Virus genome (UHGV): UHGV-0179428
DNA length: 64,000 nucleotides
Source: a virus
Strand: one strand, 5' to 3'
Shown piece by piece: positions 14,394-30,279 of the stretch (positions within the stretch are counted from its first letter, which is position 1; each line of letters opens with the position of its first letter). The notes under the pieces were generated by a model that had not been told where the DNA came from, did not search any database, and worked only from the letters and a program-made list of their open reading frames with translations. A program made the translations under genes and the position numbers.

Positions 14394-15177
14394 GGTTTAC
14401 CGTGACCTGAACTTCGTAGATTTTATTGTCTTTCTGACGCCTTAAGGTCAGAAGGATTTCGAAACTACGAACATCAATTGCCTTGAGTACCCTCATAAAC
14501 CATTTCCAGGAAAACTTCTTTTTTAACCTTAGATTGTGCTGCATGTTGTGCCGCAAATCATTTCGTTTCGACGGCGTCTGTTCACAGTTAGCAGGATCGT
14601 TAACGAAGTTTGTGGAAAGACGATACCACCAGTCCGCATTCATTTTCATGTTTGCGAAGATAGTCCAAGTTAACCGAGATAACGGATGTACCATCATCTT
14701 TGCGGTCTCACCACAGTTCTGGAAATAACGGTTCAATTGCGCAGTTGCAGACTCTTTAGGTCGTTCGTCGTTATCTTCGAACAAATCCCGAGCGAGATCT
14801 TCACGCACGCGTGTGGTAATTTCAGATACGGTTTTTGTTTTGAAGTGTCCTCGGTAAGTGGTTACACAAATCCGCAGTGTCTCCACTCCGGTAATCACCA
14901 ACCCTTCTGTAAAACCTCGCCAGGTAAGATCGACAGGTAGTGCAGGGATGTTACCTGAACTCAGCTTCGTGGAGATACGTTGTATTCGATCGTCCATCGT
15001 TGCTTTTGAACGTGTTTTAAATTCTGGAGACAGAATATGTTTGGCGACGGCGAGTTTATAATCCGAAGGCTTCCATCCGATCAATTCTTTATAATTCCAA
15101 TATAGTGTTTGAAGTGGTCCGCCTGCACGTTCGTCTTCAGCGTCCACGACCACACTTACTTTTTTGCTATCCATCAC
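14332..15177 (-). CDS. Hypothetical protein (281 aa)
   Basis: ORF. Confidence 0.5.
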   Translation of the reverse strand: MMDSKKVSVVVDAEDERAGGPLQTLYWNYKELIGWKPSDYKLAVAKHILSPEFKTRSKATMDDRIQRISTKLSSGNIPALPVDLTWRGFTEGLVITGVETLRICVTTYRGHFKTKTVSEITTRVREDLARDLFEDNDERPKESATAQLNRYFQNCGETAKMMVHPLSRLTWTIFANMKMNADWWYRLSTNFVNDPANCEQTPSKRNDLRHNMQHNLRLKKKFSWKWFMRVLKAIDVRSFEILLTLRRQKDNKIYEVQVTVNLDEYQIGDQNENRPNNQSDK

Positions 15178-15207
15178 ATCACCTTGTTACAAGGGGTTAC
15201 TGGTTTA

Positions 15208-15756
15208 TTAAATAGGACGTTCTAAAAGGTAGTGCTCAATCAACGTTTCCAGTTCCCGGAATAAATGCGCAGTTTGATTTACCAGCGCTTTGTCTTCGTC
15301 GGACTCCGGTTTAAGGAACGCCGATTCATAAGGTTGAATTAGCGCGAGTAATTTACCCAGCTTATAAGCGGCAACCTCAGGACTGGACGTCCCAAAATAA
15401 GTGTCTAGCCATCGGTATTCCGCCAAGTCGTTTCGTTTATTTAAAGCGTCAGGTAATGGCAGCCATTCGATTGAACTCCTGTTAATAGCTCGTTGGTATT
15501 CATTAATGAGAAATGCCAAACGTTGATAAACGAGGTCAATGTTATTAATACGCAATTCGAGGAAACCGCGAAGGCTGGGACGAAAGGGTTCTTCATTTAT
15601 GTTTAAAGGCAACGTAAGCAATTGTAAGCCGGTAAAGACTCTGACATAGGGGTTGTGGGTGTTCTTATGGAACTCCTGCTTCAGAGACTCTCTGAGGGCT
15701 TTTAAACGATTATTCTCTAACCGTTGTTTAAAACGAGTTATTATTCCTGTTAACAT
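15208..15756 (-). CDS. Hypothetical protein (182 aa)
   Basis: ORF. Confidence 0.5.
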   Translation of the reverse strand: MLTGIITRFKQRLENNRLKALRESLKQEFHKNTHNPYVRVFTGLQLLTLPLNINEEPFRPSLRGFLELRINNIDLVYQRLAFLINEYQRAINRSSIEWLPLPDALNKRNDLAEYRWLDTYFGTSSPEVAAYKLGKLLALIQPYESAFLKPESDEDKALVNQTAHLFRELETLIEHYLLERPI

Positions 15757-15827
15757 AATTCACTCCTAAAGAATGTCTCACGTAGATAATATCTGTCTGA
15801 CTTCTTTTTGAAATTGAGGTAGTAAGA

Positions 15828-16292
15828 ATGGCTGACGAAGAAGTGAAATATCAGGCGTTTGATGGAGATGTGGACGACGAAGAATCGCTTCTCCGCCAAA
15901 CGCAACAAGCCCGTGTACGGATTGTGAATCTCATCTTAGACGATCCACAAGCACACAAAGACTTGAAAACGGTAGACCGGTTAGGGTCTTTGCTTAACGA
16001 CGTTGATAAACAAATCATTTCCAAACGTCGCGTCGCTGCTGCACAGAAAAACAGCGAAGCTAACCAAGATTTGGCGAATGCACTTAATAGCATCCTCATG
16101 CAACGTGGTAATATCAAAATACGTCGCCACGATGAGGAAGTCGAAGAAACCCAGGGCTACCAGCCCCCCGTTCCTGTTATTCCTGATGTTGAAGTAACAG
16201 AAGGGGAGCTGGCACCAGTAGGCGAACAAATCGATGTTAGATCCATTATGACGGCGGCGTTTGCACGTCCTGAGCAGGGCGAGCAAGACTAA
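15828..16292 (+). CDS. Hypothetical acidic protein (154 aa)
   Basis: Rightward ORF inside the leftward block; Asp/Glu-rich; GAGGTAGTAAGAATG RBS. Confidence 0.5.
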   Translation: MADEEVKYQAFDGDVDDEESLLRQTQQARVRIVNLILDDPQAHKDLKTVDRLGSLLNDVDKQIISKRRVAAAQKNSEANQDLANALNSILMQRGNIKIRRHDEEVEETQGYQPPVPVIPDVEVTEGELAPVGEQIDVRSIMTAAFARPEQGEQD

Positions 16293-16968
16293 ATAAAGCG
16301 GCATCTCGTGGGTCGACACCGACCCACTCTGCCATAAACCGGATATGTTCCTTAAACGGGTTAACCCCGTCTTGTTTGATTTGTTCAACCAATTCCCCGG
16401 TCAGTTCTGGTGTGAGCATGGCAGGGTGTGTGATGGTAAAGCTTGGAATCGGTTTTTTCAAGTGTGTGGCGTTAAGCTTAATCCACTCGAACCAATCGTA
16501 CATTATCCAGCAATCCCACGCCAATGACAATCTCCCTGGTGTGAGATCTTCTAACGACCAAGACACTAATTCAACTTGCACGTTATTGTAGTACATCCGA
16601 AACAGATTCAAAAAGGCTTGAAGTTCTTCGCCCGTTAAATCCGTATAAGGCCACGTATTGATGGTCAGAGTGGGTTTTTCAATTGGCGAATGCATTTCGA
16701 TTTCAAGCAACATACACTCGAATTCGTTTTTCATTGTTGCCAATAATTCAGTAGGCTGCGCATTAATCAACGCGCGCTTATCCCGCTTCCGCCACTCTTC
16801 ATCCCATTTTTCAAATCCAAGTACGCCAGCCCAAGCTTCTGTATAGCGACGACGATAAACATCGTAGTCTAGCAATGCTAAGCTTTCGGGCTTAACGGCT
16901 TTTACCCAACCTAAACGCGTATCAAATAACGTATCAATATCGATTAAGAAACGCCGAGATAATCTCAT
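16246..16968 (-). CDS. Hypothetical protein (240 aa); possible HAD-like D-x-D-x-T motif near N-terminus
   Basis: ORF; N-terminal FLIDIDTLFD resembles HAD motif I; weak. Confidence 0.45.
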   Translation of the reverse strand: MRLSRRFLIDIDTLFDTRLGWVKAVKPESLALLDYDVYRRRYTEAWAGVLGFEKWDEEWRKRDKRALINAQPTELLATMKNEFECMLLEIEMHSPIEKPTLTINTWPYTDLTGEELQAFLNLFRMYYNNVQVELVSWSLEDLTPGRLSLAWDCWIMYDWFEWIKLNATHLKKPIPSFTITHPAMLTPELTGELVEQIKQDGVNPFKEHIRFMAEWVGVDPRDAALFSLARPAQDVQTPPS

Positions 16969-17633
16969 GACGGATGGCCTATGTTGTTACCGATATGCAT
17001 CGCTTTTAGGTACGCCGACCACGTACGCGTTGCTTTAGAACTCGTTCGCTCCGCTCCAGGCAAATCAATACGCCCTTTACCGGTTTGGCGCAGCGATTGA
17101 TAGAAAGCACGTTGTAGTGCGTCGTTACCACCACGCGCCCACAAGAACTCTTTCAGTGTCCAATCGTGACCATCGGAGTACATGATGTATGCTTCTGGGA
17201 AGGACACCCCGGATGCTTTGGAAGGTCCGACGACTTGACCGGAGAGTTTATCGCGAACTTTGTCGTTTTTCGCAACCGCCATTTTCTTTTCTTGCATCTG
17301 TGTCTGACGACGGACAGGCAAGCGTAAGACTAAGTGAGGGTAACGAGTACGATGATAAACGCCCGTTTTTGGTTCTGTTAACCAGAGTCGTTGCTCCAGG
17401 TTTACCCCGAGAATTTTGCACACCTCGATATTGCGCAGGTGATCAATTTCGACTTTACTTCCCACCGGGTTGTAAATAGGTAAACCGTTACGAAGTCGGT
17501 TAAACTGTTCGTCGGTCATTCGTGCGAAGGCTTTCTTCGCGGCTTCAGCATTAATGCCAGAAGGGTCTACCAACTTTAAGATTTGTAAGGCGTAGGCTTC
17601 CGCCTTTTTACGCCGCGCTGGTTCGAGTTTCAT
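16965..17633 (-). CDS. Hypothetical protein (222 aa)
   Basis: ORF. Confidence 0.5.
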   Translation of the reverse strand: MKLEPARRKKAEAYALQILKLVDPSGINAEAAKKAFARMTDEQFNRLRNGLPIYNPVGSKVEIDHLRNIEVCKILGVNLEQRLWLTEPKTGVYHRTRYPHLVLRLPVRRQTQMQEKKMAVAKNDKVRDKLSGQVVGPSKASGVSFPEAYIMYSDGHDWTLKEFLWARGGNDALQRAFYQSLRQTGKGRIDLPGAERTSSKATRTWSAYLKAMHIGNNIGHPS

Positions 17634-17907
17634 TGTCTACCGCCTTACGTAAATTGGATAACGTTTCTGCTTCAAGCAGGTCAATCCAGTAGCTGATAGC
17701 TTCCGTGTTTTCAGGAAGTTCGGAACGTACTGGCGCATACCCGTAACGTACTAATAGATTCGAGTAATACTCAGCGACCTTTAAACAAAAGGATTCCAGA
17801 TCGGGAAACGGGTGAGTGAAGGCTTCACGAAATTCGGCCGCTGTTTCTAAATTAACACTTGCCAATCCTTCACTTAAGCGTTCCACAATCTCCGTTTGAT
17901 AACGCAT
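17608..17907 (-). CDS. Hypothetical protein (99 aa)
   Basis: ORF with AAGGAG RBS. Confidence 0.5.
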   Translation of the reverse strand: MRYQTEIVERLSEGLASVNLETAAEFREAFTHPFPDLESFCLKVAEYYSNLLVRYGYAPVRSELPENTEAISYWIDLLEAETLSNLRKAVDNETRTSAA

Positions 17908-17922
17908 GATGACTCCTTAGGT

Positions 17923-17944
17923 CGGGTAGGGTAAACCCTACCCG
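17923..17944 (-). other. Intergenic stem-loop (CGGGTAGGG / CCCTACCCG) without T-run
   Basis: 9-bp stem between the stop of 17952..19448 and the RBS of 17608..17907; possible RNA-processing or attenuation site. Confidence 0.4.
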
Positions 17945-17951
17945 AGCCTAT

Positions 17952-19448
17952 TTATTTCTTTTTCGTCAGGAACTTCGGTTCTAGTCCATCGACAGCCATA
18001 CCCAGAATGGTACGTGCAGTCAGTGTACGTTTACCGCCTTTGGTTTCCTGGTCTTTAAACATCCAGTATTCTACCGTGTTGTCCAGAATTTCATTCCAGT
18101 CCCACTTCTCGTCAATCAGTTTGTAAATCTCACCCATGCTGAGATGATACTTCATTTCAAGACGATGGTAGTTGTTTTGCATATACGCAATTGCCGCAGT
18201 GATTTCTAAAGCGCGACGTAAGCGGGCGTTATCAGAAATCATATCACGGATCGTCGTGCGTTGGAATTTCACACCAGGTAGAATATCCAGTTCTTTGATG
18301 GAACCGCCACTACCGCTTGATGTGAAACCAAAGTCTGACTTCTTCAGCGTGTCACTTAAATAGTGCCACAGGCTCAGGTGATATAGCAGACCCATTTCCT
18401 GAGAGAAGATCATCTGAAATTTCACACCGGTGTGACCACCCTTCGCACGATACTGGGTAAAGGTGATAATCTTCAAGTCGTTTACCGACGCATTCATCGC
18501 TTTAGAACGTGACGTCGGATAAAGTTCTTCGTTAACACCGGTCTGTGCGTTATAGCTCTGGTCTTTCTTCAGTTCCCCTGATTTCGTCGCGACGATAAAA
18601 GAGTTTGTTAAAAAGCTAAGCTGACGGCGAGGAATACCTGCGAATTTGAGGTCATCGTTGGCGTCGTCGAGAATTTTTGCATTTGCTTTTTGTGCCTGTC
18701 GGCCACCCGCCATCGCTTTCCCAGAGTCATCGGCCATCTGTGCCACGAAGCCCATGTAAAAACCACCGCGTGCAAACGCAGACGGCCAGCGGCTCATCAT
18801 ATTCGATTTCTGCAGCGCATCGTGAGCGTTCAGGATGTTCTGATCAGAATCCCCGATATCCGTTTTTGCGTGTTTGTCTTCCAGCGAACTAGAATGCCAC
18901 TCTGACAGGGAGTCGATAGAATAAAGCCAGGGGTCCAGGATTTCTTTTAACTTGCGACGAACCGGATCGGGGAACGGTGTTACGCGGGTCTTACCAGACA
19001 TATACTGTTTGAAGCGTTTTTCAACTTCATCACGAATATAATCACTGTAATACTGTTCCCCAGGCATTACGTCAGAACCGACCAGGTTATAACGACCTTC
19101 GTGGATAAGTTCCAGTACGGTTGTTCCGTCGTCGATACCGTTGGCGTTCATGGCAGAGATGTACCCAGTTTCTAAACGATCGAGGGCAGCGGACACTTCT
19201 GTATCGTACTTAGAACCCCACTCTGCTTTATAACGTTGCAGGATTTGGAAGATACAGAAATCTAACAAGGTGGATTTAAAGGTGTTACCGCGACCTGCGA
19301 AACCCATGATGTGGGCAAAACCACCGTTAAGGTAGTACAAACCATCTTCACCTTTTTCGTAGTTACCTAAGGCATGATCCATGATGGTGTAAACGTTAAA
19401 ACGTGGACGAATTACTTCACCGATAACTTGCTTAGTTGGGCCTGCCAT
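17952..19448 (-). CDS. Hypothetical protein (498 aa)
   Basis: Long ORF; no confident motif. Confidence 0.55.
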   Translation of the reverse strand: MAGPTKQVIGEVIRPRFNVYTIMDHALGNYEKGEDGLYYLNGGFAHIMGFAGRGNTFKSTLLDFCIFQILQRYKAEWGSKYDTEVSAALDRLETGYISAMNANGIDDGTTVLELIHEGRYNLVGSDVMPGEQYYSDYIRDEVEKRFKQYMSGKTRVTPFPDPVRRKLKEILDPWLYSIDSLSEWHSSSLEDKHAKTDIGDSDQNILNAHDALQKSNMMSRWPSAFARGGFYMGFVAQMADDSGKAMAGGRQAQKANAKILDDANDDLKFAGIPRRQLSFLTNSFIVATKSGELKKDQSYNAQTGVNEELYPTSRSKAMNASVNDLKIITFTQYRAKGGHTGVKFQMIFSQEMGLLYHLSLWHYLSDTLKKSDFGFTSSGSGGSIKELDILPGVKFQRTTIRDMISDNARLRRALEITAAIAYMQNNYHRLEMKYHLSMGEIYKLIDEKWDWNEILDNTVEYWMFKDQETKGGKRTLTARTILGMAVDGLEPKFLTKKK

Positions 19449-19463
19449 TTAGCGCTCCGATAA

Positions 19464-19763
19464 TTAACGATTCTTGGTCGGAAGAAGGAGACGGCGGTTG
19501 TGCCAGAATTCAAAGTAGGTCTCTACCCACTCAGTAACTTCTTCCGCATTTTCAGGATAAGGGTTTTCAATAGACTCGAAACGGCGTTTATTACGCTCGT
19601 CAATTTCCAGTTCCATAACACGTTTACCGCTCGGGCACGACGTTACGCTCAAGACTTTTCCAACTTGAATAGGTTTACCGTTCTGACCTTTTTTAACAGG
19701 CGTCAGATAAATTTCCGGTTCTAAACGCGGTGTGGTGTTTCGAGTCAGTAATTTGATTTTCAT
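19464..19763 (-). CDS. Hypothetical protein (99 aa)
   Basis: ORF. Confidence 0.5.
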   Translation of the reverse strand: MKIKLLTRNTTPRLEPEIYLTPVKKGQNGKPIQVGKVLSVTSCPSGKRVMELEIDERNKRRFESIENPYPENAEEVTEWVETYFEFWHNRRLLLPTKNR

Positions 19764-19861
19764 CGAGCTTTACCTTTATGGAAGAGTCTCGGTCATAAGG
19801 TTTGGGTGAACTGTAAAAAGACTTTACTATGTAACCCTGACTTATAATCCGAGGTTTTAGA

Positions 19862-20617
19862 ATGAATGTAAATCCACTTGCAGCGTTATCTAGCTTCGCC
19901 GCTAAAGCGTCTGCAATCTTACCGAAAGGGTTTAGTGGCCCTCAACAAGAGATTGCATTAACCACTTATGACGAGATGTCGGACGTTTCCAAGTGGATGC
20001 AACAAGAAAAATTCCTACACTTTGCGGGAATGTTGGTTATCGTCCCACCTGGGTTTAATACCTACGTGATGGATCACTTGAACCGCTTAGAATCCGTATG
20101 GAGTTCACTACAAAACATCTATACGGGTATTCTGCTGCCGGTCGATAAACAACTTTCGGCCCTTACACATGATGTGGGGGTACTGTCATTACCGATTGGT
20201 TTCCGTTACAAAAATGTTAATTTGCCGTTACGTAATGTTAACCCGAAAGACCTGGTTAACTTATTAGCGAAATCGTACACTAATAACGTTATTGACCAGC
20301 GACCAATTGAGAAGACGTACCACAGCGCGTCTGAGATTGACGTTGCGTTCAATCGTGCTAAGGCACTGAACGTTGAAATTACGAAACGTTTACGGACGAA
20401 CATCGACAAGTCAATCGAGTCCATTCGCACCACGTCAGAAATCTTGTCTGAACAAAACATTCATCCGAATGTAGCAAAAGAACTGACGATGATGTTAGAT
20501 TTTGCATCCGATTGGGTGGAGTTGTTTGGTCTGTTCATGAAACAGGTTAACGAGTTAATCGAATGCCTGAACGTTACTGCCGAACGCTTAAAAGCGCTTA
20601 AGGCAAACAAAAAATAA
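19862..20617 (+). CDS. Hypothetical protein (251 aa)
   Basis: Rightward ORF in a divergent/convergent pocket; GAGG RBS. Confidence 0.5.
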   Translation: MNVNPLAALSSFAAKASAILPKGFSGPQQEIALTTYDEMSDVSKWMQQEKFLHFAGMLVIVPPGFNTYVMDHLNRLESVWSSLQNIYTGILLPVDKQLSALTHDVGVLSLPIGFRYKNVNLPLRNVNPKDLVNLLAKSYTNNVIDQRPIEKTYHSASEIDVAFNRAKALNVEITKRLRTNIDKSIESIRTTSEILSEQNIHPNVAKELTMMLDFASDWVELFGLFMKQVNELIECLNVTAERLKALKANKK

Positions 20618-20668
20618 AAAAGTAAAGTTACCCCTAGACCACACGGTCTAGGGGTAAACTATTTATTT
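20606..20668. terminator. Bidirectional Rho-independent terminator (13-bp stem TTACCCCTAGACC / GGTCTAGGGGTAA)
   Basis: A-run, long perfect stem with ACAC loop, then T-rich run; between convergent genes. Confidence 0.65.
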
Positions 20669-21562
20669 CCCACGATAAAATCCAGAAATGTAACTCGGCG
20701 CTATCCATCGCCATTCGCGCCAGCGCATTTCTGACATTTTACCACACCATACACGCTTCCAATGCGCACGACGGATATGTGCGGCGCAATAAATCGCCAA
20801 ACAAACCTCGTGTCCTTCCTTGCGCTGCTGCTCTATATCTTCCCATTGTACCGGACTTACATCTAAAACGACAGCTTCACTACGTGGGCGAATTTCTGTA
20901 TCAGGAACATAACGAATGGACCTTCCGCGAAATTCTTTCTTCTCGCGCTCAGTTCGTTTAATTCGCGATGAAAGATATAGCCCGATGTAGACCGCGTCGA
21001 GTAGTCGTTGATTCTCCTTAACCGAAGTAAGGAGCGGCTTTAACTCCACGAAATCGTCATTACTTTTATCGATTGTGTAAATCTCAAACTCCATGTATAC
21101 CGTCTCGTCATGTTCTTCGCATGACATCACAAAGAGAACTTCTTCACCTTCGTAAAGACGTCTTCCGATAAATAACGTGATTGGACTTTCGTCGAGATTT
21201 ACAGTAACCGAGAAAGTAAATGAAGGGATGGTTTCTATCCAGAAGTACGGGATATTTTTTAGTCTCTCAGTTTTTGCTAAGAGCGCCATCAATTCTTCAT
21301 CCGAGATGATTTCAACAGCGGCGTATTGCCATCCTAGTCCCAGGGACTGCTTAATCAGTCTTGGAATCTGTTCGGTAACGCCATACTCACGATAGGTCGG
21401 ATCTTTAACTGGCATAAACGTTACGGGTATTTGACGTTTATGCTCGTTAATGAACCGAATAAAGCGACACTGATCTAATCCGTGAATTGTTTGGTGTGCC
21501 TTTTCTATTTGTTCGCTCATGCGTCTTAGCGCTTTCCCGTAAAGTCTATTATTCGTTGTCAT
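20663..21562 (-). CDS. Hypothetical protein, paralog B of a tandem pair with conserved basic C-terminal H-I-R-R-A-H-W motif
   Basis: Start moved to the ATG at 21562 (AGGAG upstream), removing the overlap with the upstream paralog. C-terminus AAHIRRAHWKRVWCG...WIAPSYISGFY aligns with the C-terminus of 21588..22514. Confidence 0.55.
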   Translation of the reverse strand: MTTNNRLYGKALRRMSEQIEKAHQTIHGLDQCRFIRFINEHKRQIPVTFMPVKDPTYREYGVTEQIPRLIKQSLGLGWQYAAVEIISDEELMALLAKTERLKNIPYFWIETIPSFTFSVTVNLDESPITLFIGRRLYEGEEVLFVMSCEEHDETVYMEFEIYTIDKSNDDFVELKPLLTSVKENQRLLDAVYIGLYLSSRIKRTEREKKEFRGRSIRYVPDTEIRPRSEAVVLDVSPVQWEDIEQQRKEGHEVCLAIYCAAHIRRAHWKRVWCGKMSEMRWREWRWIAPSYISGFYRGK

Positions 21563-21587
21563 TTTAATACTCCTAAACACTTTTAGC

Positions 21588-22514
21588 TTAATTGTGGGGT
21601 ACGTAGCCACGGACAAAGGTAGGTGGAATCCAACAAAGTTTTCTCTTTCTTTCACCATTTCTAGGGCCGACCCAATATCTGCGCCAGTGAGCGCGACGGA
21701 TGTGGGCAGCCTTAGCATGTTTGATACCCTGCATGGTTTTCAAGTCAGTGTTAAACCCTTTTAGATAATTCACTTGTCCTGGCGTGATATCTATCTTAAC
21801 ATCGCGTTCACGAGGTTTAACGTCGTAACTAATACTACCGTTCTTTTTGATTTCCTTGAACTTAATATCATTAAAAGACTCCCTGTAATTGGGCGGGATT
21901 AGCGTACACAGAAAAATCATCGAAGTAGCGGCTTTGGCCAGAGATAGCCATAGCATCTTTTCTTGTTCGGTCCGTACGCCAGTTGTATAATCGATTTCAA
22001 CAAGCCCGTTTCCAACACTACATATCTCTAACGAGCAGGTGGCGATTGTGGTAACGCCTTCTGTTAACCCGTAATCAGTATTTGTAGCAATTATAATAAA
22101 CCTTCTCTTCCCGTTTTTTCGATAGCCGAGAAAGAAAGTCTCATCCTCTTTACCTACGTCGATTGCTACAGTCCATGTGGGTATAAAGTCCAACCATTCT
22201 TCAGGGAATTTACTGGGCATCTCAGTCTCGAAAACAAGTTCTCTAAGTGCTTGGTTGGATATTAAGGAAGCGCCACCGTATAGCCATCCAATTGCCAATG
22301 TTTGAGCGTGAAGGGAACGGGGATCTTTGAGACCTAACTCGGCGTCGTAGGGTATAAAGGCATTAGTTAAATGCTTACGATTCTTTTTTATCCATTTCGA
22401 GACGGGATTTTCTTTTGTTTGATTTTCTTCCATGACATTTTCTAGATGCTGACACCCCATTTGTCTAAGGCAGTCTTTAATACCTTTTACTTTTTTACTT
22501 TTGTACAAATACAT
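21588..22514 (-). CDS. Hypothetical protein, paralog A of tandem pair with conserved basic C-terminal H-I-R-R-A-H-W motif
   Basis: C-terminus AAHIRRAHWRRYWVG...WIPPTFVRGYV; central similarity to paralog B. Confidence 0.55.
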   Translation of the reverse strand: MYLYKSKKVKGIKDCLRQMGCQHLENVMEENQTKENPVSKWIKKNRKHLTNAFIPYDAELGLKDPRSLHAQTLAIGWLYGGASLISNQALRELVFETEMPSKFPEEWLDFIPTWTVAIDVGKEDETFFLGYRKNGKRRFIIIATNTDYGLTEGVTTIATCSLEICSVGNGLVEIDYTTGVRTEQEKMLWLSLAKAATSMIFLCTLIPPNYRESFNDIKFKEIKKNGSISYDVKPRERDVKIDITPGQVNYLKGFNTDLKTMQGIKHAKAAHIRRAHWRRYWVGPRNGERKRKLCWIPPTFVRGYVPHN

Positions 22515-22534
22515 GGTTTATTCTCCTAAAATGG

Positions 22535-22566
22535 TTAAAAATAAAGTAACCCTAGCCGAAGCTAGG
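22535..22566 (-). terminator. Rho-independent terminator (CCCTAGC / GCTAGGG stem)
   Basis: Stem with CGAA loop and T-run on the minus strand after 22574..23062. Confidence 0.5.
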
Positions 22567-22573
22567 GCGTGTA

Positions 22574-23062
22574 TTAGTCGATTTTGACGTAATCTGGATA
22601 ATTGGCTTTTAACCACTCCCATAGTTGCAGAGCAAGTTGGTTTTCGTTACGCTTGATGATTTCTACGATTTCGTTCAAGAGAGAGTCTTCAACCCAAATC
22701 CGGGTATAAAATTTTTCCCATTCCGGTTCTGTATAAGGGACTAGCGGAGTAGGGAATCGACCCATGTGGTACGCATCAGAAACTTTCTTTAAGAACTCGT
22801 TGCGACCATGGCGTAGACGTTGCCGAACGTCTGTTTCTGTTATGCGCTTGCTTGATGGATCGAAGAAGTCAAGTATGATAAATATGTATCCAAATAAGCT
22901 CTGAGAAGAAAAGTAGGACGCGGCGTAGTCCGCCATCCAGGGAGTGTCTACAACCAACGGAGTCAACTTTTCTTCAATTTCTTTTCTTACACGTGTTTCG
23001 TTATTGAGAAATTCATGTACGAAATCGGTGTCACGAATATCGAAGATATGATTTAAGTTCAT
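22574..23062 (-). CDS. Hypothetical protein (162 aa)
   Basis: ORF. Confidence 0.5.
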   Translation of the reverse strand: MNLNHIFDIRDTDFVHEFLNNETRVRKEIEEKLTPLVVDTPWMADYAASYFSSQSLFGYIFIILDFFDPSSKRITETDVRQRLRHGRNEFLKKVSDAYHMGRFPTPLVPYTEPEWEKFYTRIWVEDSLLNEIVEIIKRNENQLALQLWEWLKANYPDYVKID

Positions 23063-23063
23063 T

Positions 23064-23588
23064 TTATTGTCCTAATATTGGGGAGAGCCTGTCTGCGGTG
23101 ACTAACAACGCTTTTGTAATTTCGTGGTTGGTCTCTTTTAGGATGGCGCAGCAGAGAGTGGTATAAACCTCGATTGCTAACGCGATTTCTTGTTCAGTCA
23201 GGCACGGTTCGGTACCGTCAATCCCGTAACGTTGCGCCGCATACTCAATTTCAAGTTTCAAACGTTTTCGTAGTGCTTCGTCATCAGTTAAACGCGTACA
23301 CGCCCGATCGAAACGTCTATTGTAAGCCTCGATCTTGTGGACAATTTCACGTCGCAGTTGGTCGACATTTACGTTATCATCAAGAGTGATGGTGACGTTG
23401 TCAACTAAACAGTAATGCACTGTGTGTCGTAAGTTGTGTAATGTGGCGACAGTAACGACCCGCTCCTGATGGTCGCTAAAGCCGTGAGCACCACAGAGCT
23501 TGCGTGCAACTGCGCCGGAGATTTTCTCCTCTAGCGCTATCGGTGTGGCAATGGTTGTTTTCTTACGAAGCTGAATTAAAATATCCAC
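23064..23588 (-). CDS. Hypothetical protein (174 aa)
   Basis: ORF. Confidence 0.5.
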   Translation of the reverse strand: MDILIQLRKKTTIATPIALEEKISGAVARKLCGAHGFSDHQERVVTVATLHNLRHTVHYCLVDNVTITLDDNVNVDQLRREIVHKIEAYNRRFDRACTRLTDDEALRKRLKLEIEYAAQRYGIDGTEPCLTEQEIALAIEVYTTLCCAILKETNHEITKALLVTADRLSPILGQ

Positions 23589-23590
23589 GT

Positions 23591-24163
23591 TTATACTCCT
23601 TTAGGTTGACCGTATTTTGATGACAGGTAGATGAGCTCAGCATGGCAGATTTTCTCAACTAACCCGAGTGACTCAAGGAAAATATCCCGGATACGAGACA
23701 TTGTTTCGTTGGTAAGAATATCGCTCCAACACGTTGTGTCTATTATATCCGTCGTTGAAGATTGTCGCTGCAATATGGCGACATACACTTCATCGAGGGT
23801 ATCTGGAGCATTATTCTGTAAGTAATGCGCGGCATGTAGAAAGGCTTTCTCAAGAATCAGGTGAATATCCGTATCGGGATCAGTTACCCGCACTAAATGT
23901 GGGTATGTCATGGCCGAATGGATTTTTCGTTCTAACTGTTCAATGAGATTATTCACCATCGCTTCTGAATCCAGGATAGTAATTTCAACCCCACTGTGTT
24001 CTTCAGAAATCTTGTTCTCATGTACTGCTATCGCGTCGTGCAGTTCAAACGCAACGCGGCTACGCATCTCACTTAACAGTTTGTTTAATTTGCCCCGTGA
24101 CTCACTGAGTGAGAAATCGATAAGTATTTTCATGTTAATAGCCCTGATAAATGATGTCGTCAC
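23591..24163 (-). CDS. Hypothetical protein (190 aa)
   Basis: ORF. Confidence 0.5.
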   Translation of the reverse strand: MTTSFIRAINMKILIDFSLSESRGKLNKLLSEMRSRVAFELHDAIAVHENKISEEHSGVEITILDSEAMVNNLIEQLERKIHSAMTYPHLVRVTDPDTDIHLILEKAFLHAAHYLQNNAPDTLDEVYVAILQRQSSTTDIIDTTCWSDILTNETMSRIRDIFLESLGLVEKICHAELIYLSSKYGQPKGV

Positions 24164-24872
24164 GGTCTTTACGTAACTGGCAGTATGTTACGTCAGCACC
24201 GTTAGGGATTTGTACGCCAGCGTCTTCAAGATAAATAACACCAGTCTGATTACAGAAATAAAAAGACCACAAGTACGGATTGCCTTGACAACTGTTTTCA
24301 CGATGATCGAAGGGCCAATAACCACGATACAATTCGTCGTAATCACCACGCTCGATACCAAAAGCAACCATTTCTTTTTCCCACAATCTGCTTTCGGCGT
24401 CGTAAATCGAAAACCAGAAACCGACGAGGTTCTTTGTCCGTTTAACGTTCATTAAGTCGTTATAAATGGGGAAGAGTGCTTTATTGAAACTTTCTAACAT
24501 CTCTGGAGAGAGTAGAAAGTTCACGTAGTATTCTAGCCATTGATAAACGGCTTCCCAGACATCTTCAGAAGAGAAATGCTCGAATACGGCGTCATCACAA
24601 TCGTAGTTATCGAAGACCCCTGAGAGATCTATTATGACGTCGCGAAGGTCAAAGTTTCGGTTGGTATTGACAGCCTCAATAACTTCGGAGATAAGACGAG
24701 TAAAGACGTTTGTGCAGGCAGTCTGTGCGGTATAAAAGAATTCTCCTTGTACGGTTGACCACTTTGGGTCCTTCAAATGTTCATTGAAGTATTGTGGCCA
24801 AATTTTATAAAAGATTCCCTCGAACAACGAGGGATTGATACGTTGTAATTGAGGGACATAAACTTTCAGCAT
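24135..24872 (-). CDS. Hypothetical protein (245 aa)
   Basis: ORF. Confidence 0.5.
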   Translation of the reverse strand: MLKVYVPQLQRINPSLFEGIFYKIWPQYFNEHLKDPKWSTVQGEFFYTAQTACTNVFTRLISEVIEAVNTNRNFDLRDVIIDLSGVFDNYDCDDAVFEHFSSEDVWEAVYQWLEYYVNFLLSPEMLESFNKALFPIYNDLMNVKRTKNLVGFWFSIYDAESRLWEKEMVAFGIERGDYDELYRGYWPFDHRENSCQGNPYLWSFYFCNQTGVIYLEDAGVQIPNGADVTYCQLRKDRDDIIYQGY

Positions 24873-24908
24873 TTTAATAACTCCAATGGTGTTACACCTG
24901 GATAATAT

Positions 24909-25577
24909 CTATCTAAGAATATTTTTAGCGAAAAAAGGATCGACTGTAAACTCCTTCACCTGTGAGTCATAACCCGAATGTATCTGATCGCTACTGAGCA
25001 AATACTGGTCTAAATCGTGCGGAAGAATCCAAGAATCACCTTGCTTAAAAATACCATAATCTGTTGTTCCAGAGGAAAAAACGATTTCCTCTGGAGACGA
25101 ATAGATGTGGCGTAAGGCAAGATCGGACGGCTTTAACACGATTAATCTAACGGGATGTTGACTGACTGCCTCTTTAATAAACTGTTCACGATTAAACCAA
25201 ATTATTTTTTCGGGGTAAGTTTCGAATTCAGCCCATGTCCGCGTGATAACTAATTTGGAAATCTTTCTCAATTCTTCAGAATGCTCTGCGTAGCCGATAC
25301 ACTCCTTGCGCACTTCATGATTTTCTACCGATGCTGTGAATTTTTGGAATAGGTGTTGTTGGAAAAAGCCGTTCTCCGGGATATCACAACCCGCGTTGTA
25401 TAGTGCAATGATCTCCCACAACAACGAAAGAGAAAACACAAATGCTAACTTTTCCACAACTTCCCAATCTTCGGAGTAAGGGGCTTTAAAGCCCCAATAC
25501 TGCCGTGCGTTATACATAAAGTGAGTTTGTAAAAACCGAGGGGCTTTTGACAAGACCTCACTATAAACGATCAGCAT
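24909..25577 (-). CDS. Hypothetical protein (222 aa)
   Basis: ORF. Confidence 0.5.
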   Translation of the reverse strand: MLIVYSEVLSKAPRFLQTHFMYNARQYWGFKAPYSEDWEVVEKLAFVFSLSLLWEIIALYNAGCDIPENGFFQQHLFQKFTASVENHEVRKECIGYAEHSEELRKISKLVITRTWAEFETYPEKIIWFNREQFIKEAVSQHPVRLIVLKPSDLALRHIYSSPEEIVFSSGTTDYGIFKQGDSWILPHDLDQYLLSSDQIHSGYDSQVKEFTVDPFFAKNILR

Positions 25578-27091
25578 TCAAGCTCCTTATCCGTCAATAT
25601 TCGTTTGTTTGAATAATAGCCACACCACAAGCCATGATATTTTTCCCCAATATAAACCAACGCGTACTCGATATACTGCCGTTCTGGACGCCGTACCGCC
25701 ACGTAGAAACGCCCTTCTGGTTCTTTCATACGGTTGATTTCTGTACGCGTCGGTATGTCGATACCTCGAGTAAGGATGGTTTTAACCTTGTTTTTGCTAC
25801 CAGGGATATGGATGGTTACGTCAAAACCTTTATCTACATTACGATAAAAGTCTTTCTTCGGCTTACCTTTCTCATCGTAAAGCAGGTCAGTAATGTCGTT
25901 CATTACGACTGAGTTTTTCCCCTCCATGGCATCACGTAACCAACCTGCAAGCTCATCACGAATCGTAATGCAGCGATAAGACAATAACGCGGGACGAAGA
26001 ATTCGTGTAATCGAAAGATCTTCAAACATCCACAGGTTTTTGTCTTCGCTAAAATGCATCCGATCGACAGGAATACCGTTAGCTGCGGCTTCTGCGAACT
26101 TCTTACGTTTTACGAATAAGTTAAAAACAACGGCGATGGGATCAAACTGACGTAAACGGGGCACCCCTTCCCACGCTTTCGCAGAGTGGGTATTTACCAA
26201 CTCGTATACGTTGTTCCATGGTTCTTTGGTAAACATTACGCAGAATTGTGCATCTGGAATGTACTTACCAACGAAGACGATATCGTCCTTCTGTTTTGCA
26301 TGGTTCCCACCGAACATGTAATAAAGTTTATTACCGTTAACTGTAACAGTGGGATGGGGTTCGTTCACCATCGGGTAACAGAACTTCGTAACACAGATAT
26401 CGGGAAAAGCGGACAAATTGACACCCTCACCAACAACTTCTGGTTGCTGATCTTCCTCAGGCATCTCGTCTTTTGACCAATACGGCGTATAGTCTAGCCC
26501 CTCCCCTCGACCAGAGATACTTGAACCCTTCCGTGCTAACTCGTCGGCACGCTCATTTCCATAACGCCCAGAATGACCTTTAATTTTAAGGACACGAACG
26601 CCTTTCCCTTCTTTCTTTAACCGCTGTTTAACCTCCCACATCCGTTGGATTAATTCCAAGTTCGCAATAGGCGTACCGTCCGCACGACGCCAACCGCGCG
26701 CAGCCCAACCATCAATCCAATCGTTATACGTGTTGACAACGTAAGATGCGTCGATGTAGATAACATAGTTTTTGGCAACGAAAGGTGCGTGTTCGAAGAC
26801 GGTCAGGAAAGCCACGAGTTCCGCAACATCAGAGTGTGACATTTTTGGTACAGGCACAACACCGTCGATAAACTCCACGGTTTCTGGTAAAGGTGGAAGT
26901 TTTTCATCCTTGTTTATCTGGCGGTATCCTGACGTCGTAATCCCCTCAGGAATAGAAGGATGGCGGTAAACCCGACCATCCTCAATCGTTTCACGATTAA
27001 ATAAGTATCCATGAATCCCCGCTCCTGTACCGAGCGGGGAGGTCAAATGGCTACCATCCGTGTAAATTACTGCAACATCAACGTTCTTCAT
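25571..27091 (-). CDS. RNase HI-domain protein fused to a ~310-aa C-terminal domain of unknown function
   Basis: N-terminal ~190 aa match RNase HI: VIYTDGS, SDVAEL, IYIDASYVVN, WxxRGWRRADGTPIANLEL, KIKGHSGRYGNERADELAR. The remainder has no recognisable motif. Confidence 0.75.
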   Translation of the reverse strand: MKNVDVAVIYTDGSHLTSPLGTGAGIHGYLFNRETIEDGRVYRHPSIPEGITTSGYRQINKDEKLPPLPETVEFIDGVVPVPKMSHSDVAELVAFLTVFEHAPFVAKNYVIYIDASYVVNTYNDWIDGWAARGWRRADGTPIANLELIQRMWEVKQRLKKEGKGVRVLKIKGHSGRYGNERADELARKGSSISGRGEGLDYTPYWSKDEMPEEDQQPEVVGEGVNLSAFPDICVTKFCYPMVNEPHPTVTVNGNKLYYMFGGNHAKQKDDIVFVGKYIPDAQFCVMFTKEPWNNVYELVNTHSAKAWEGVPRLRQFDPIAVVFNLFVKRKKFAEAAANGIPVDRMHFSEDKNLWMFEDLSITRILRPALLSYRCITIRDELAGWLRDAMEGKNSVVMNDITDLLYDEKGKPKKDFYRNVDKGFDVTIHIPGSKNKVKTILTRGIDIPTRTEINRMKEPEGRFYVAVRRPERQYIEYALVYIGEKYHGLWCGYYSNKRILTDKELEC

Positions 27092-27093
27092 TC

Positions 27094-27828
27094 TTAATCC
27101 CTGGTTAATTGATCACGAATCTGCGGCGCAACATACTCGCCCGTTTTCAGTTCTTCGTGACAGGCTTTGGCGCGTTCAAACCCGTATTGGCGAGTGACCA
27201 AAGCGAGGTGGTAAATACGTGCCGTGGTGTAGGCTTCTTTTGCTGCATCCCACATTGCGTGGTGCTCAAAAGCGGGCTTACCGCGTGTCCAGTAAATTTG
27301 CTCTACGGTTAGGTCAGGCTCGAAACCAAATGCAAAGGCTAAACGTTCTGCGGTACGATCGCTATCCAGTGCACTGAATTTACGGAACTTCCCTGGCGGA
27401 ATATCACACTGTGCGAACGCGTTCATGAAAATCGGTGCATCGAAGTCAGGACCACGCATGGTAATAACAAATTCATGTTTTGCGGTAATCTCCCCGAGCC
27501 ATTTTTGCATCGCCCACAGTGCGTCCGGCAATGCTGTCGTCCCACCCCATGCTTCCGCATAGGCTTCACGAGACGGTGCGTATTCGGGTTCGCCTTTACC
27601 TTCCCACCAACCAACGGTTTGTGGGTCTTCGTGGAAAATGGCTTTTGCTTTAGGATCGTTAGGATCAATACGGATGTATGAGGAACCGACCATTTTCAAT
27701 GTAGGGACGTCAAAAGCCACTAAACCTGCACTTAACAGATAAGCATCGGGACGTAATGATTTGGTTTCAGCATCGGCACCAATAACCAGTGTCGGCGTGT
27801 ACGGGGTGACAATTTTTGGGTAGGTCAT
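27094..27828 (-). CDS. DnaQ-like (DEDDh) 3'-5' exonuclease
   Basis: Exo I-like VIGADAET, Exo II-like DFDAPIF, Exo III-like HHAMWDAAKEAYTTARIY (H-x4-D); immediately downstream of the RNase H gene. Confidence 0.5.
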   Translation of the reverse strand: MTYPKIVTPYTPTLVIGADAETKSLRPDAYLLSAGLVAFDVPTLKMVGSSYIRIDPNDPKAKAIFHEDPQTVGWWEGKGEPEYAPSREAYAEAWGGTTALPDALWAMQKWLGEITAKHEFVITMRGPDFDAPIFMNAFAQCDIPPGKFRKFSALDSDRTAERLAFAFGFEPDLTVEQIYWTRGKPAFEHHAMWDAAKEAYTTARIYHLALVTRQYGFERAKACHEELKTGEYVAPQIRDQLTRD

Positions 27829-27865
27829 GTTGAATTCTCCTGTTAGTCTACATTAAAATAGTTGC

Positions 27866-27913
27866 AAACGTTAAAAAGAAAGACCCTCCTGTACCTCGAA
27901 GGGTACAGGAGGG
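27866..27913 (-). terminator. Rho-independent terminator (12-bp stem CCCTCCTGTACC / GGTACAGGAGGG)
   Basis: Long GC stem and T-run on the minus strand after the stop of 27918..28376. Confidence 0.6.
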
Positions 27914-27917
27914 GGTG

Positions 27918-28376
27918 TCAGTACAAACACGATGTCAAGTATTGGTTATACGAATCGAGCAGCGCCTGACGGTCGGAACGGTAATTCCACAACAAATTAT
28001 TGAGTTTACGCGATAAATCACGGCTAATCTCCTGGGCCGTTAAAGAGCTCTCATCAAGAGACAAGCGTTCAGGTACAACGTGTAATTTCGGTAACTCATA
28101 GCGTTCACAAAGTGGAGCCAACATTGGTGGACTCCAGCCACGTTTAACGGCTTGCTGGTTTAAATTTCGAGTGTAGACATAAACGTAATAAGCATAGGTG
28201 TTGACATCTGCAACATACTCACGCATTGCATTCTTGTCAATTTTCCAATTCACCATTATTGGTGGTTCAGGAGGAAGTTCCAGTGGTCTATAAGCTGGAC
28301 GTTTAACTTCGTCACCGTAGCTATTACTCACCAACCCCACGAACACTACCATGATGAATAATAGCATTTTCATCAA
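27918..28376 (-). CDS. Secreted proline-rich protein with signal peptide (152 aa)
   Basis: N-terminal MMKMLLFIMVVFVGLVSNSYG-DEV signal peptide; Pro-rich mature N-terminus; no lipobox Cys. Confidence 0.5.
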   Translation of the reverse strand: MMKMLLFIMVVFVGLVSNSYGDEVKRPAYRPLELPPEPPIMVNWKIDKNAMREYVADVNTYAYYVYVYTRNLNQQAVKRGWSPPMLAPLCERYELPKLHVVPERLSLDESSLTAQEISRDLSRKLNNLLWNYRSDRQALLDSYNQYLTSCLY

Positions 28377-28880
28377 TCACTCCTTAGAAGACGATAGCGT
28401 CTTTATGATCTCCTGTCGAAAACTGTTCGCGTTTAAATTACCAACAGGTCTCGCCGAAGCCTCTTTACGTTGTTCTGGTGTTGAAGCCGGATTAACAGGA
28501 GTTTCTGGTTTTGCCGAGGACAGATCCTTCGTCGTACCGCTCGCTTTCGATGAATTAAACGTGCTTTCATATGGCGGTTTCTGGCCGAGGCAAACGAAGA
28601 GTCTGTCGTATAACTTCCCATTATCTTCTTTTAGTTTATCTCGATCTTGTTTCATCTCTTGGTAAGACTGCGACATATAAGTGTCATGAGACTGCACTGC
28701 AACGAGCGCGTGAAACTGTTGTACATAGGCGTAGGAGACGAAGCCAGAATACGACAACAAGATCGTGATGATTAAAGTCATTATCTTGCTTGCTCTTGAT
28801 ACGTTTTCTCCTTCTCCTGGTTTAAATGCTTCCATTAACATCTGAAGGAAGAACGGAAGCACTTTAAAAAATGAACCCAT
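28377..28880 (-). CDS. Membrane-anchored protein (N-terminal TM, predicted periplasmic domain), 167 aa
   Basis: Single TM IMTLIITILLSYSGFVSYAYV after a short cytoplasmic N-terminus; charged helical region then Ser/Thr/Pro-rich tail; stop/start abuts the secreted-protein gene. Confidence 0.5.
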   Translation of the reverse strand: MGSFFKVLPFFLQMLMEAFKPGEGENVSRASKIMTLIITILLSYSGFVSYAYVQQFHALVAVQSHDTYMSQSYQEMKQDRDKLKEDNGKLYDRLFVCLGQKPPYESTFNSSKASGTTKDLSSAKPETPVNPASTPEQRKEASARPVGNLNANSFRQEIIKTLSSSKE

Positions 28881-28905
28881 TGCTCACCTCGGAGTATTTT
28901 TAATT

Positions 28906-30279
28906 ATGTTAGACTTACAAGGTTTTATTCAGATACCGGCACTGTTTGACAATCAGGACGGCGTCACCGCTCCGGTGGGCGAGCTGTCGGATTTGACACT
29001 CTCGTACGCGAAGAGTAAACAGACGTTTACCAAAACCAATTTGCAAGTTCAATTGGTGACTTTTACGTCTAAACGAGAAAAACAGACGGTTGTTGTACCA
29101 GCCGAATTTTCTGATCATATTCTAACCGTTTCTCAATGGATATACCAGCAAGCCATCTTGGGGAATCTGAGAAATGACGAACTTGAATTCCAGCGCCTGT
29201 TACTAGGACAATTCCAATCAACCATTTCTGGCGTTCAGTCCGGTGCGATGATTCAGACGAACAGTAATTGGTTCCCACGCTGGGTGAGCTGGAAATATGA
29301 AGCAACAGCAGATCAAGTACAAGATGACACTGATGTAGATAATCAGATCATTGTTTGGTTCTCGGATGAAGACTTCGATCAAGATTACACAGGGTTCGAA
29401 ATCGAAGTACAGATGCCGATTTCACCAATCGACACATTTTTGTCGACCAAGTCAGTCGTTGAAAAGGCGATGGAAGGGTTTAACCTTACCGAACACCATA
29501 AGAAAATCAATGAGTTAATGGCAGGATTTCCTTACACCGCTATCCAAACCAACTACTATACTTGGCACGATCAAGAAAACTACGAGTCCACCCTAGTTGT
29601 CCCAATGTCGGTTATTATTTACGGCCGTGCGGGAAAAAACCCAACGAAAATAAAGCAAGCGTTGCGTGAACATATTCTCGCTAATTCTAGCTTTACTGTC
29701 CCCGTCGGGGTAAAGGTATTTCCTGAAATTTTCACTACCACGAAATTTACAATTGTTCCTGGATGGAAAATTCGTGGAATACCTAATGAGGAAGACGTAG
29801 CGGCGCTTTATTCCCCTATCCTTCCATATGATTTCTGGGTCAAAGCTATCAGTCGGTTTGGAGAATGGGCAGACCTGACGGTAGCAGAAAGAAATACTAA
29901 AACGATCAGTAAGCCTACGACAGATGTAACTGACTTACCAACCGTTTATAAATCGTTAAACTGTGTTGTAATCAGTGGGCCGGAAAACGATACGCGGAAA
30001 GCGACCTTACACGAAACTATCCCGGATTATGCGTTAATTGCGACGACTAATCCTGATATTGCGCGTATGTCGAAAACAACGACCGAATGGTTGGCGTTAT
30101 TCTTCCAGGCACTTATTGCTGCGGAAGAATACCACCCGTATCAAACCAGCTTAGACATTGTAAAACTGGTCGATGAGGCAGACCCTGATAACTATTTCTG
30201 GGTATTTGAGTACGATAATGTGGAATATCGAATCCTGTCTCGGAAAGCGAAATGGTACAGCGAGTTAGACGAGGAGTAA
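28906..30279 (+). CDS. Hypothetical protein (457 aa), possibly structural
   Basis: Rightward ORF. Confidence 0.55.
   Translation: MLDLQGFIQIPALFDNQDGVTAPVGELSDLTLSYAKSKQTFTKTNLQVQLVTFTSKREKQTVVVPAEFSDHILTVSQWIYQQAILGNLRNDELEFQRLLLGQFQSTISGVQSGAMIQTNSNWFPRWVSWKYEATADQVQDDTDVDNQIIVWFSDEDFDQDYTGFEIEVQMPISPIDTFLSTKSVVEKAMEGFNLTEHHKKINELMAGFPYTAIQTNYYTWHDQENYESTLVVPMSVIIYGRAGKNPTKIKQALREHILANSSFTVPVGVKVFPEIFTTTKFTIVPGWKIRGIPNEEDVAALYSPILPYDFWVKAISRFGEWADLTVAERNTKTISKPTTDVTDLPTVYKSLNCVVISGPENDTRKATLHETIPDYALIATTNPDIARMSKTTTEWLALFFQALIAAEEYHPYQTSLDIVKLVDEADPDNYFWVFEYDNVEYRILSRKAKWYSELDEE

Follow-up and report, generated by a model that had tools for sequence, protein, structure and literature searches.

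The anti-CRISPR protein AcrVA2, encoded beside acrVA1 in a Moraxella bovoculi prophage (PDB 7CI1/7CI2; Pfam family PF26125), lowers both the mRNA and the protein of cas12a more than 10-fold, and this effect needs translation and the N-terminal amino-acid sequence of Cas12a (LSKT motif), not the nucleotide sequence (bioRxiv 10.1101/2022.11.29.518452). According to its authors AcrVA2 is the first prokaryotic protein that destroys a specific mRNA upon recognising the polypeptide under translation (bioRxiv 10.1101/2022.11.29.518452). FinQ, the protein by which IncI1 and related plasmids inhibit fertility, belongs to the same family; this inhibitor, carried by mobile elements, is reported to reduce the mRNA of specific genes, those of F tra (bioRxiv 10.1101/2022.11.29.518452). 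By the account of Marino et al. (bioRxiv 10.1101/2022.11.29.518452), family members are mostly found in the absence of Cas12a, and earlier work has already pointed to homologues in "megaphages" and in huge phages. Here we analyse two adjacent genes, which we call A and B, in a 64,000-nucleotide stretch (the window) of the virus genome UHGV-0179428, whose genes show it to be a jumbo-phage relative of Salmonella phage SPN3US. Both belong to the already described AcrVA2/FinQ family (Pfam PF26125, "AcrVA2-like") and, by analogy with AcrVA2, they probably act as mRNA silencers. The genes are:

21588..22514, minus strand: gene A, 308 aa, AcrVA2/FinQ-family protein (PF26125), upstream copy
20663..21562, minus strand: gene B, 299 aa, second AcrVA2/FinQ-family paralogue

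Two tandem members of the AcrVA2/FinQ family

Genes A and B lie head to tail on the minus strand, in open reading frames (ORFs) at the coordinates given in an earlier note that was made from the sequence alone. That note took them for a tandem pair of paralogues, and BLASTP agrees, aligning the two proteins at 25% identity over 286 columns (E=2e-22). An alignment of this length and significance means that the similarity extends along most of their length, beyond the C-terminal motif, and is far past chance, so the lack of pairwise similarity that the note had named as grounds for giving up the pair is not what we see. No third copy was found in the whole window when its six-frame translation was scanned with the family profile and the motif.

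The earlier note could not place the proteins in a known family, and here it has to be corrected, as both profile and fold assign them to AcrVA2/FinQ. Protein A alone retrieves AcrVA2 (chain 7ci1) in a sequence search of the PDB at E=4.5e-4, with the C-terminus aligned exactly over ...HIRRxHW..., and profile A1, built from 18 homologues, matches the same chain at E=2e-23 (profile positions 37–281, chain residues 34–317). With hmmsearch this profile also finds the FinQ ORF of the IncI1 plasmid pHNRD174 at E=1e-41 (130 bits, profile positions 9–281), an E-value that comes from a database of different size than that for AcrVA2. Starting from AcrVA2 as query, one arrives at finQ-annotated genes on hundreds of conjugative plasmids. 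Precomputed Pfam annotation places PF26125 on both genes, in the window's own contig (L011) and in all close relatives, and both proteins match PHROG 6160 (function unknown). Protein B alone gave only noise against the PDB in phmmer, with AcrVA2 not detected, so the tie of B to AcrVA2 comes from the structure model, the profile and its similarity to A. In the local Pfam-A, NCBIfam and PADLOC libraries neither A nor B had a relevant match; the local Pfam-A probably does not contain the PF26125 model, since proteins P0001–P0003, which carry precomputed PF26125, also remained unmatched.

The AlphaFold2 models of A (predicted local distance difference test, pLDDT, 81; predicted template modelling score, pTM, 0.83) and B (pLDDT 82, pTM 0.84) both show the three-domain fold of AcrVA2, which is the sole significant structural neighbour of either model (Foldseek for A: E=3e-10, probability 1.0) at a sequence identity of just 12–17%. 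No nuclease-like fold was detected in the structure searches of the two models. The earlier note was also prepared to abandon its reading if the motif turned out to be part of a known nuclease or recombinase family with a standard function: the family is indeed known, but its function is non-standard and it is not a standard nuclease or recombinase.

How do the two proteins compare with the described members of the family? In contrast to AcrVA2 they come as two tandem copies, their central domain is without the insertion carrying D129, and they are found not in a Moraxella prophage but in a lytic jumbo phage, the closest isolates to which have enterobacterial hosts; their target is almost certainly not Cas12a. 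FinQ, with its C-terminus PHIRRGHWHTYWTG...IWLPP, differs in being plasmid-borne and longer (ORF up to 363 aa) and in being directed at another plasmid's transfer operon, and in pairwise comparison it resembles A and B only over the C-terminal 30–40 residues. A tblastn search of plasmids with gene A matched only an Enterobacter 'plasmid' (discussed below) and no FinQ, which was reached only with the profile or from AcrVA2 as query. An exhaustive phmmer search gave 305 cluster representatives at E <=0.001, most of them 300–380 aa long and matching only via the C-terminal 35–60 residues, which fits a family of conserved tail and divergent bodies. Single-copy homologues from PHROG 6160 in Seoulvirus and Erskinevirus (EC001 MGA_211, Asesino gp235, ChrisDB, AD1 and others) are orthologous, sit at the same position, are 25–30% identical to A and B and are all annotated 'hypothetical protein'.

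The finQ gene of pHNRD174 (L091, NZ_KX246268.1, 1318–2409) is annotated in RefSeq with 259 aa, and its frame is open for up to 363 aa from the first ATG. The longer product gives the E=1e-41 quoted above, against 2e-36 for the annotated form; since its alignment begins as early as position 9, the annotated finQ start may be too far downstream.

The C-terminal motif and other key residues

The domains that carry the motif are:

21600..21722, minus strand: C-terminal beta-strand domain of A, about residues 265–305
20678..20791, minus strand: C-terminal domain of B, about residues 258–295

The C-termini read ...AAHIRRAHWRRYWVGPRNGERKRKLCWIPPTFVRGYVPHN in A and ...AAHIRRAHWKRVWCGKMSEMRWREWRWIAPSYISGFYRGK in B, so the strings quoted in the earlier note as a conserved C-terminal signature are exact. 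The HIRRAHW core covers residues 271–277 of A (nucleotides 21684–21704) and 262–268 of B (nucleotides 20759–20779). In the profile alignment H286, R288 and H291 of AcrVA2 correspond to H271, R273 and H276 of A and to H262, R264 and H267 of B, and the three columns are invariant in the alignment of 18 sequences. Judged by this correspondence, the "AAHIRRAHW" of the note is the family's known functional HxR..H motif: the substitutions H286A, R288A and H291A in AcrVA2 abolish downregulation and leave Cas12a binding intact (bioRxiv 10.1101/2022.11.29.518452). The surrounding tail is strongly basic and aromatic, with 8 R, 5 K, 4 H and 3 W in the last 50 residues of A and 7 R, 3 K, 3 H and 5 W in those of B.

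Outside the motif the conservation is uneven. W79 of AcrVA2 aligns with W77 of A and W78 of B, and D89 aligns with D88 of B but with N87 of A; mutations of W79 and D89 in AcrVA2 cause just a moderate loss of function (bioRxiv 10.1101/2022.11.29.518452). The AcrVA2 residues reported to contact the Cas12a peptide are E98, D129 and D195 (bioRxiv 10.1101/2022.11.29.518452). The first, at the start of the aligned central region, is kept as E98 in A and E99 in B, and D195, inside this region, is replaced by E in A and by S in B.

Copy number and allele variation

The number of AcrVA2-like genes at this locus differs among related phages as follows:

SPN3US: 0 copies, 63-bp gap
EC001 (classed in the same species as SPN3US): 1 copy
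Erwinia phage Asesino: 1 copy
Window and close relatives: 2 copies

Gene A is somewhat nearer than B to the single-copy genes (123 versus 79 bits for Asesino), and A and B are as distant from each other as each is from the single-copy genes of EC001 and Asesino; the duplication, or the second acquisition, is therefore old. Two family ORFs within 8 kb are also present in unrelated IMG/VR viral contigs (L050 and the L054–L071 group), the second ORF of the L054–L071 group being about 118 aa long and matching only part of the profile. Thus a multi-copy arrangement is not unique to the window phage.

Divergence among close relatives concentrates in the middle of the proteins:

21885..22154, minus strand: central beta-sheet/helix region of A, residues 121–210, most variable between alleles, presumed target recognition
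21023..21127, minus strand: central region of B, about residues 146–180, least conserved between the two B alleles

Each gene exists as distinct alleles (63–73% identity) among otherwise near-identical relatives, and the alleles occur in differing combinations. Between the relatives L008 and L004 the neighbouring genes are mostly 97–100% identical, while gene A is only 73% and the 162-aa gene upstream of it 71% identical. Within A the identity in this pair is about 70% over residues 1–120, falls to 40–50% over residues 121–210, a region that aligns with the part of AcrVA2 around D195, and rises to 93–100% over residues 211–311. The window carries an A of the L008 type (94%) together with a differing B (64% versus L008), in which residues 146–180 have 30% amino-acid and 43% nucleotide identity to those of L008. 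Over the 14 loci, A comes in at least three types and B in two, and four combinations of them were seen.

Within a type both genes are kept by purifying selection, as the ratio of nonsynonymous to synonymous substitution rates (dN/dS) is 0.08 for A (window versus L008) and 0.10 for B (L008 versus L004). Between types of A the ratio is highest in the central domain, 0.27 against 0.08 in the C-terminal part. No positive selection was detected, dN/dS being below 1 everywhere and dS being saturated for the B alleles, so that localised divergence and recombination are all that is demonstrated, and not diversifying selection. The 162-, 190- and 222-aa genes upstream of A (22574–23062, 23591–24163 and 24909–25577, all on the minus strand) have 39–67% amino-acid identity between the window and its relatives, and the 162-aa genes of L008 and L007 have 40–49% nucleotide identity; no Pfam or PADLOC match was found for any of the three. 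The flanking RNase H, UvsX and 251-aa genes are 85–96% identical in amino-acid sequence between the window and its relatives. Read together, these comparisons describe a recombination-prone accessory island, in which the C-terminus of the family proteins stays constant and the central domain changes, and the divergence pattern fits target-driven diversification.

The phage, its probable host and the gene neighbourhood

The relation to SPN3US is apparent from the 1440-aa virion protein of the window, which is 52–54% identical to its SPN3US-group counterparts, and from the genes flanking the pair, which encode UvsX-like, RNase H-like and split RNA polymerase beta-subunit proteins, with a 3'-5' exoribonuclease also nearby. 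A megablast search of the phage collection with the locus found no match, and the collection therefore holds no close sequenced isolate. SPN3US is a Seoulvirus, and this genus falls within the nucleus-forming Chimalliviridae. The gene order is conserved: RNase H, five to six small genes, the AcrVA2-like gene or genes, a convergent 251-aa gene, a 99-aa gene and UvsX. The small proteins around A and B matched nothing in Pfam or PADLOC and had no helix-turn-helix hit, none of the neighbours seen was acrVA1-like, and the window contains no tRNAs.

Related phages infect Salmonella, E. coli and Erwinia. The Enterobacter match mentioned above, NZ_CP134650.1 (L012, 26517–41434), is a circular 'plasmid' of 222,441 bp, non-mobilizable, and comes from Enterobacter ludwigii strain 51A:C, which was obtained from a gull cloaca. 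It is syntenic with about 15000–29000 of the window, including the exoribonuclease, RNase H, two AcrVA2-like genes (annotated as hypothetical) and UvsX. Most likely this record, though deposited as a plasmid, is the genome of a jumbo phage that persisted in the strain, which fits published reports of persistent virulent jumbo phages in bacterial isolates. This synteny points to Enterobacter as a host, and the window phage probably infects Enterobacter or its relatives. Single-copy homologues of the EC001 type (cluster P0011) also turn up in many assemblies of Salmonella enterica isolates, where they sit on contigs of about 240 kb (a single listed member was by itself seen on 122 contigs, the longest of 243,535 bp), and SPN3US-like phage genomes are therefore present in assemblies of bacterial isolates.

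Gene starts and transcription signals

The signals around the two genes are:

22523..22527, minus strand: Shine-Dalgarno AGGAG of A, 8 nt upstream of the ATG of A (from sequence)
21570..21574, minus strand: Shine-Dalgarno AGGAG of B, 7 nt upstream of ATG 21562 (from sequence)
22549..22568, minus strand: terminator-like hairpin with T-rich tail, between the upstream 162-aa gene and A (consensus scan, pattern match only)
20628..20657, both strands: palindrome with 13-bp stem, between the convergent ends of B and the plus-strand 251-aa gene (consensus scan and sequence)

The ORF holding gene B runs from 20663 to 21718 and so overlaps A by 131 nt. The earlier note had observed that the overlap vanishes if B starts at an internal ATG preceded by AGGAG, and the comparison with relatives bears this out. 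With ATG 21562 as the start there is a 25-nt spacer between the TAA stop of A and B, the resulting N-terminus agrees with those of the homologues P0004 (98% identical, 299 aa) and P0005, and the gene call in the window's own source contig is likewise 299 aa. On these grounds the true start of B is ATG 21562 and not the ORF-track ATG at 21718.

The palindrome at 20628–20657 has a perfect stem, TTACCCCTAGACC...GGTCTAGGGGTAA, and scores as a terminator on either strand. The CCCTAGC...GCTAGGG hairpin upstream of A (22549–22568) resembles it, and 'CTAGGG' stems may be a recurrent terminator type of this phage. With terminator-like hairpins (pattern matches only) bounding the pair, one shortly before A and one shortly after B, the arrangement suggests that the pair forms its own small transcription unit. 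A consensus scan for sigma-70 promoters found fewer sites than in shuffled sequence and is therefore uninformative for phages of this type.

Proposed function

What are A and B doing in this phage then? We propose that they are two anciently diverged AcrVA2/FinQ members that act as polypeptide-specific, translation-coupled mRNA silencers with different, non-Cas12a targets, and by analogy we consider this the probable answer. In such a mechanism the variable N-terminal and central domains would bind one particular polypeptide, probably while it is still being made on the ribosome, and the basic, conserved domain at the C-terminus (HxRRxHW...W...W-I/L-P-P) would cause the mRNA under translation to be lost, so that synthesis of one chosen protein would be switched off. 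Silencing by A and B is suggested by the conservation of the residues that AcrVA2 needs for it, and two copies with differing central domains would be expected to have two different targets, most probably host defence or competitor proteins. Cas12a is not expected among these targets since the likely hosts are Enterobacteriaceae, in which, to our knowledge, Cas12a is not known. The variation at the locus (0, 1 or 2 copies, differing allele combinations and divergence concentrated in the central domain) is a signature of an arms race and speaks for the proposal, as does the purifying selection that keeps both genes. Nucleus-forming phages are reported to evade DNA-targeting Cas enzymes, and a silencing that is cytoplasmic and coupled to translation would suit a phage of this kind, whose DNA is probably shielded and whose mRNAs, like those of the host, are translated in the cytoplasm. 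A BLASTP-based survey found nucleus-forming jumbo phages to be without verified anti-CRISPRs.

Several points weigh against this proposal. The activity of A and B is extrapolated from AcrVA2 at 12–17% identity, and the key study on AcrVA2 is still a preprint. By the alignment, D89 of AcrVA2 is replaced by N87 in A, and D129 sits in an AcrVA2-specific insertion that A and B lack. The L008–L004 divergence is partly a recombination tract that also spans the 162-aa gene, so diversifying selection specific to the domain is not proven. Finally, the host of the window phage is one that we infer.

More tentatively, the pair can be seen as an mRNA-silencing module that is guided by polypeptides and has dual specificity, in a jumbo phage of a nucleus-forming lineage. 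Here a conserved effector C-terminus would be combined with a fast-evolving, cassette-like central domain, and the alleles of the two copies would recombine independently between phage strains, tracking changing cytoplasmic targets such as non-Cas12a defences of the host. We regard this extended version as possible rather than likely.

The alternatives differ in what would be silenced. A role like that of FinQ, in competition between mobile elements, is unlikely; here the silenced genes would belong to plasmids in the same cell or to superinfecting phages instead of to the host's defences. In its favour, FinQ, a member of the same family, inhibits F-plasmid transfer and lowers tra mRNA (bioRxiv 10.1101/2022.11.29.518452), SPN3US-like phages persist in bacterial isolates where they meet plasmids and other phages, and the profile scores better against FinQ than against AcrVA2 (with the reservation on database size given above). 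Against such a role stands the pairwise similarity to FinQ, undetectable outside the C-terminal domain. The position of the pair among replication and RNA-metabolism genes (RNase H, 3'-5' exoribonuclease, UvsX, RNA polymerase beta subunit) would suit a part in host takeover, with abundant housekeeping mRNAs of the host being silenced, or in phage gene regulation, where the silencing of phage mRNAs would serve as a temporal switch. We find such a part improbable, since SPN3US does without the gene and both copy number and alleles vary among close relatives, a pattern more in keeping with an accessory gene involved in conflict than with a core regulator.

That one or both proteins are true anti-CRISPRs against Cas12a, as AcrVA2 is, seems very improbable in spite of the common family and fold and the retained equivalent of E98. 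The identity to AcrVA2 is low, D129 is missing together with its insertion and D195 is changed in both proteins, no acrVA1-like gene was seen next to the pair, whose small neighbours are unannotated, Cas12a is as a rule absent where family members occur, as cited in the opening paragraph, and Seoulvirus, as part of Chimalliviridae, would be expected to escape DNA-targeting Cas enzymes anyway. The relatives' hosts are Enterobacteriaceae, a group from which, as said, we know of no Cas12a. Just as implausible is a reading in the line of the earlier note, that these are unplaced new proteins whose His/Arg/Trp-rich tail directly binds or cuts nucleic acid or binds metal, as the proteins do have a family. 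The basic and aromatic tail is real, though, and a catalytic or RNA-binding role is conceivable for the H/R/H residues on which mRNA loss depends in AcrVA2, so that the motif may bind nucleic acid or metal, as the note guessed.

Significance

The AcrVA2/FinQ family and the role of the motif as its functional signature were already known. What is added here is modest: 'hypothetical' genes of SPN3US-like phages are assigned to the family, a conserved tandem pair is described, one locus is seen with 0, 1 or 2 copies, and alleles differing mainly in the central domain are seen to be shuffled independently. The annotation is useful because these genes are publicly 'hypothetical protein', even though the family is known. 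With its two diverged copies and its alleles that differ mainly centrally, the locus is natural material for work on the AcrVA2 mechanism and on the targets of its homologues, in a phage group that has culturable relatives and hosts (Salmonella, E. coli, Erwinia and probably Enterobacter). If the pair is indeed a dual-specificity module, AcrVA2-type co-translational silencing would be a general viral counter-defence that nature has retargeted, and the alleles would provide matched sets for decoding its specificity.

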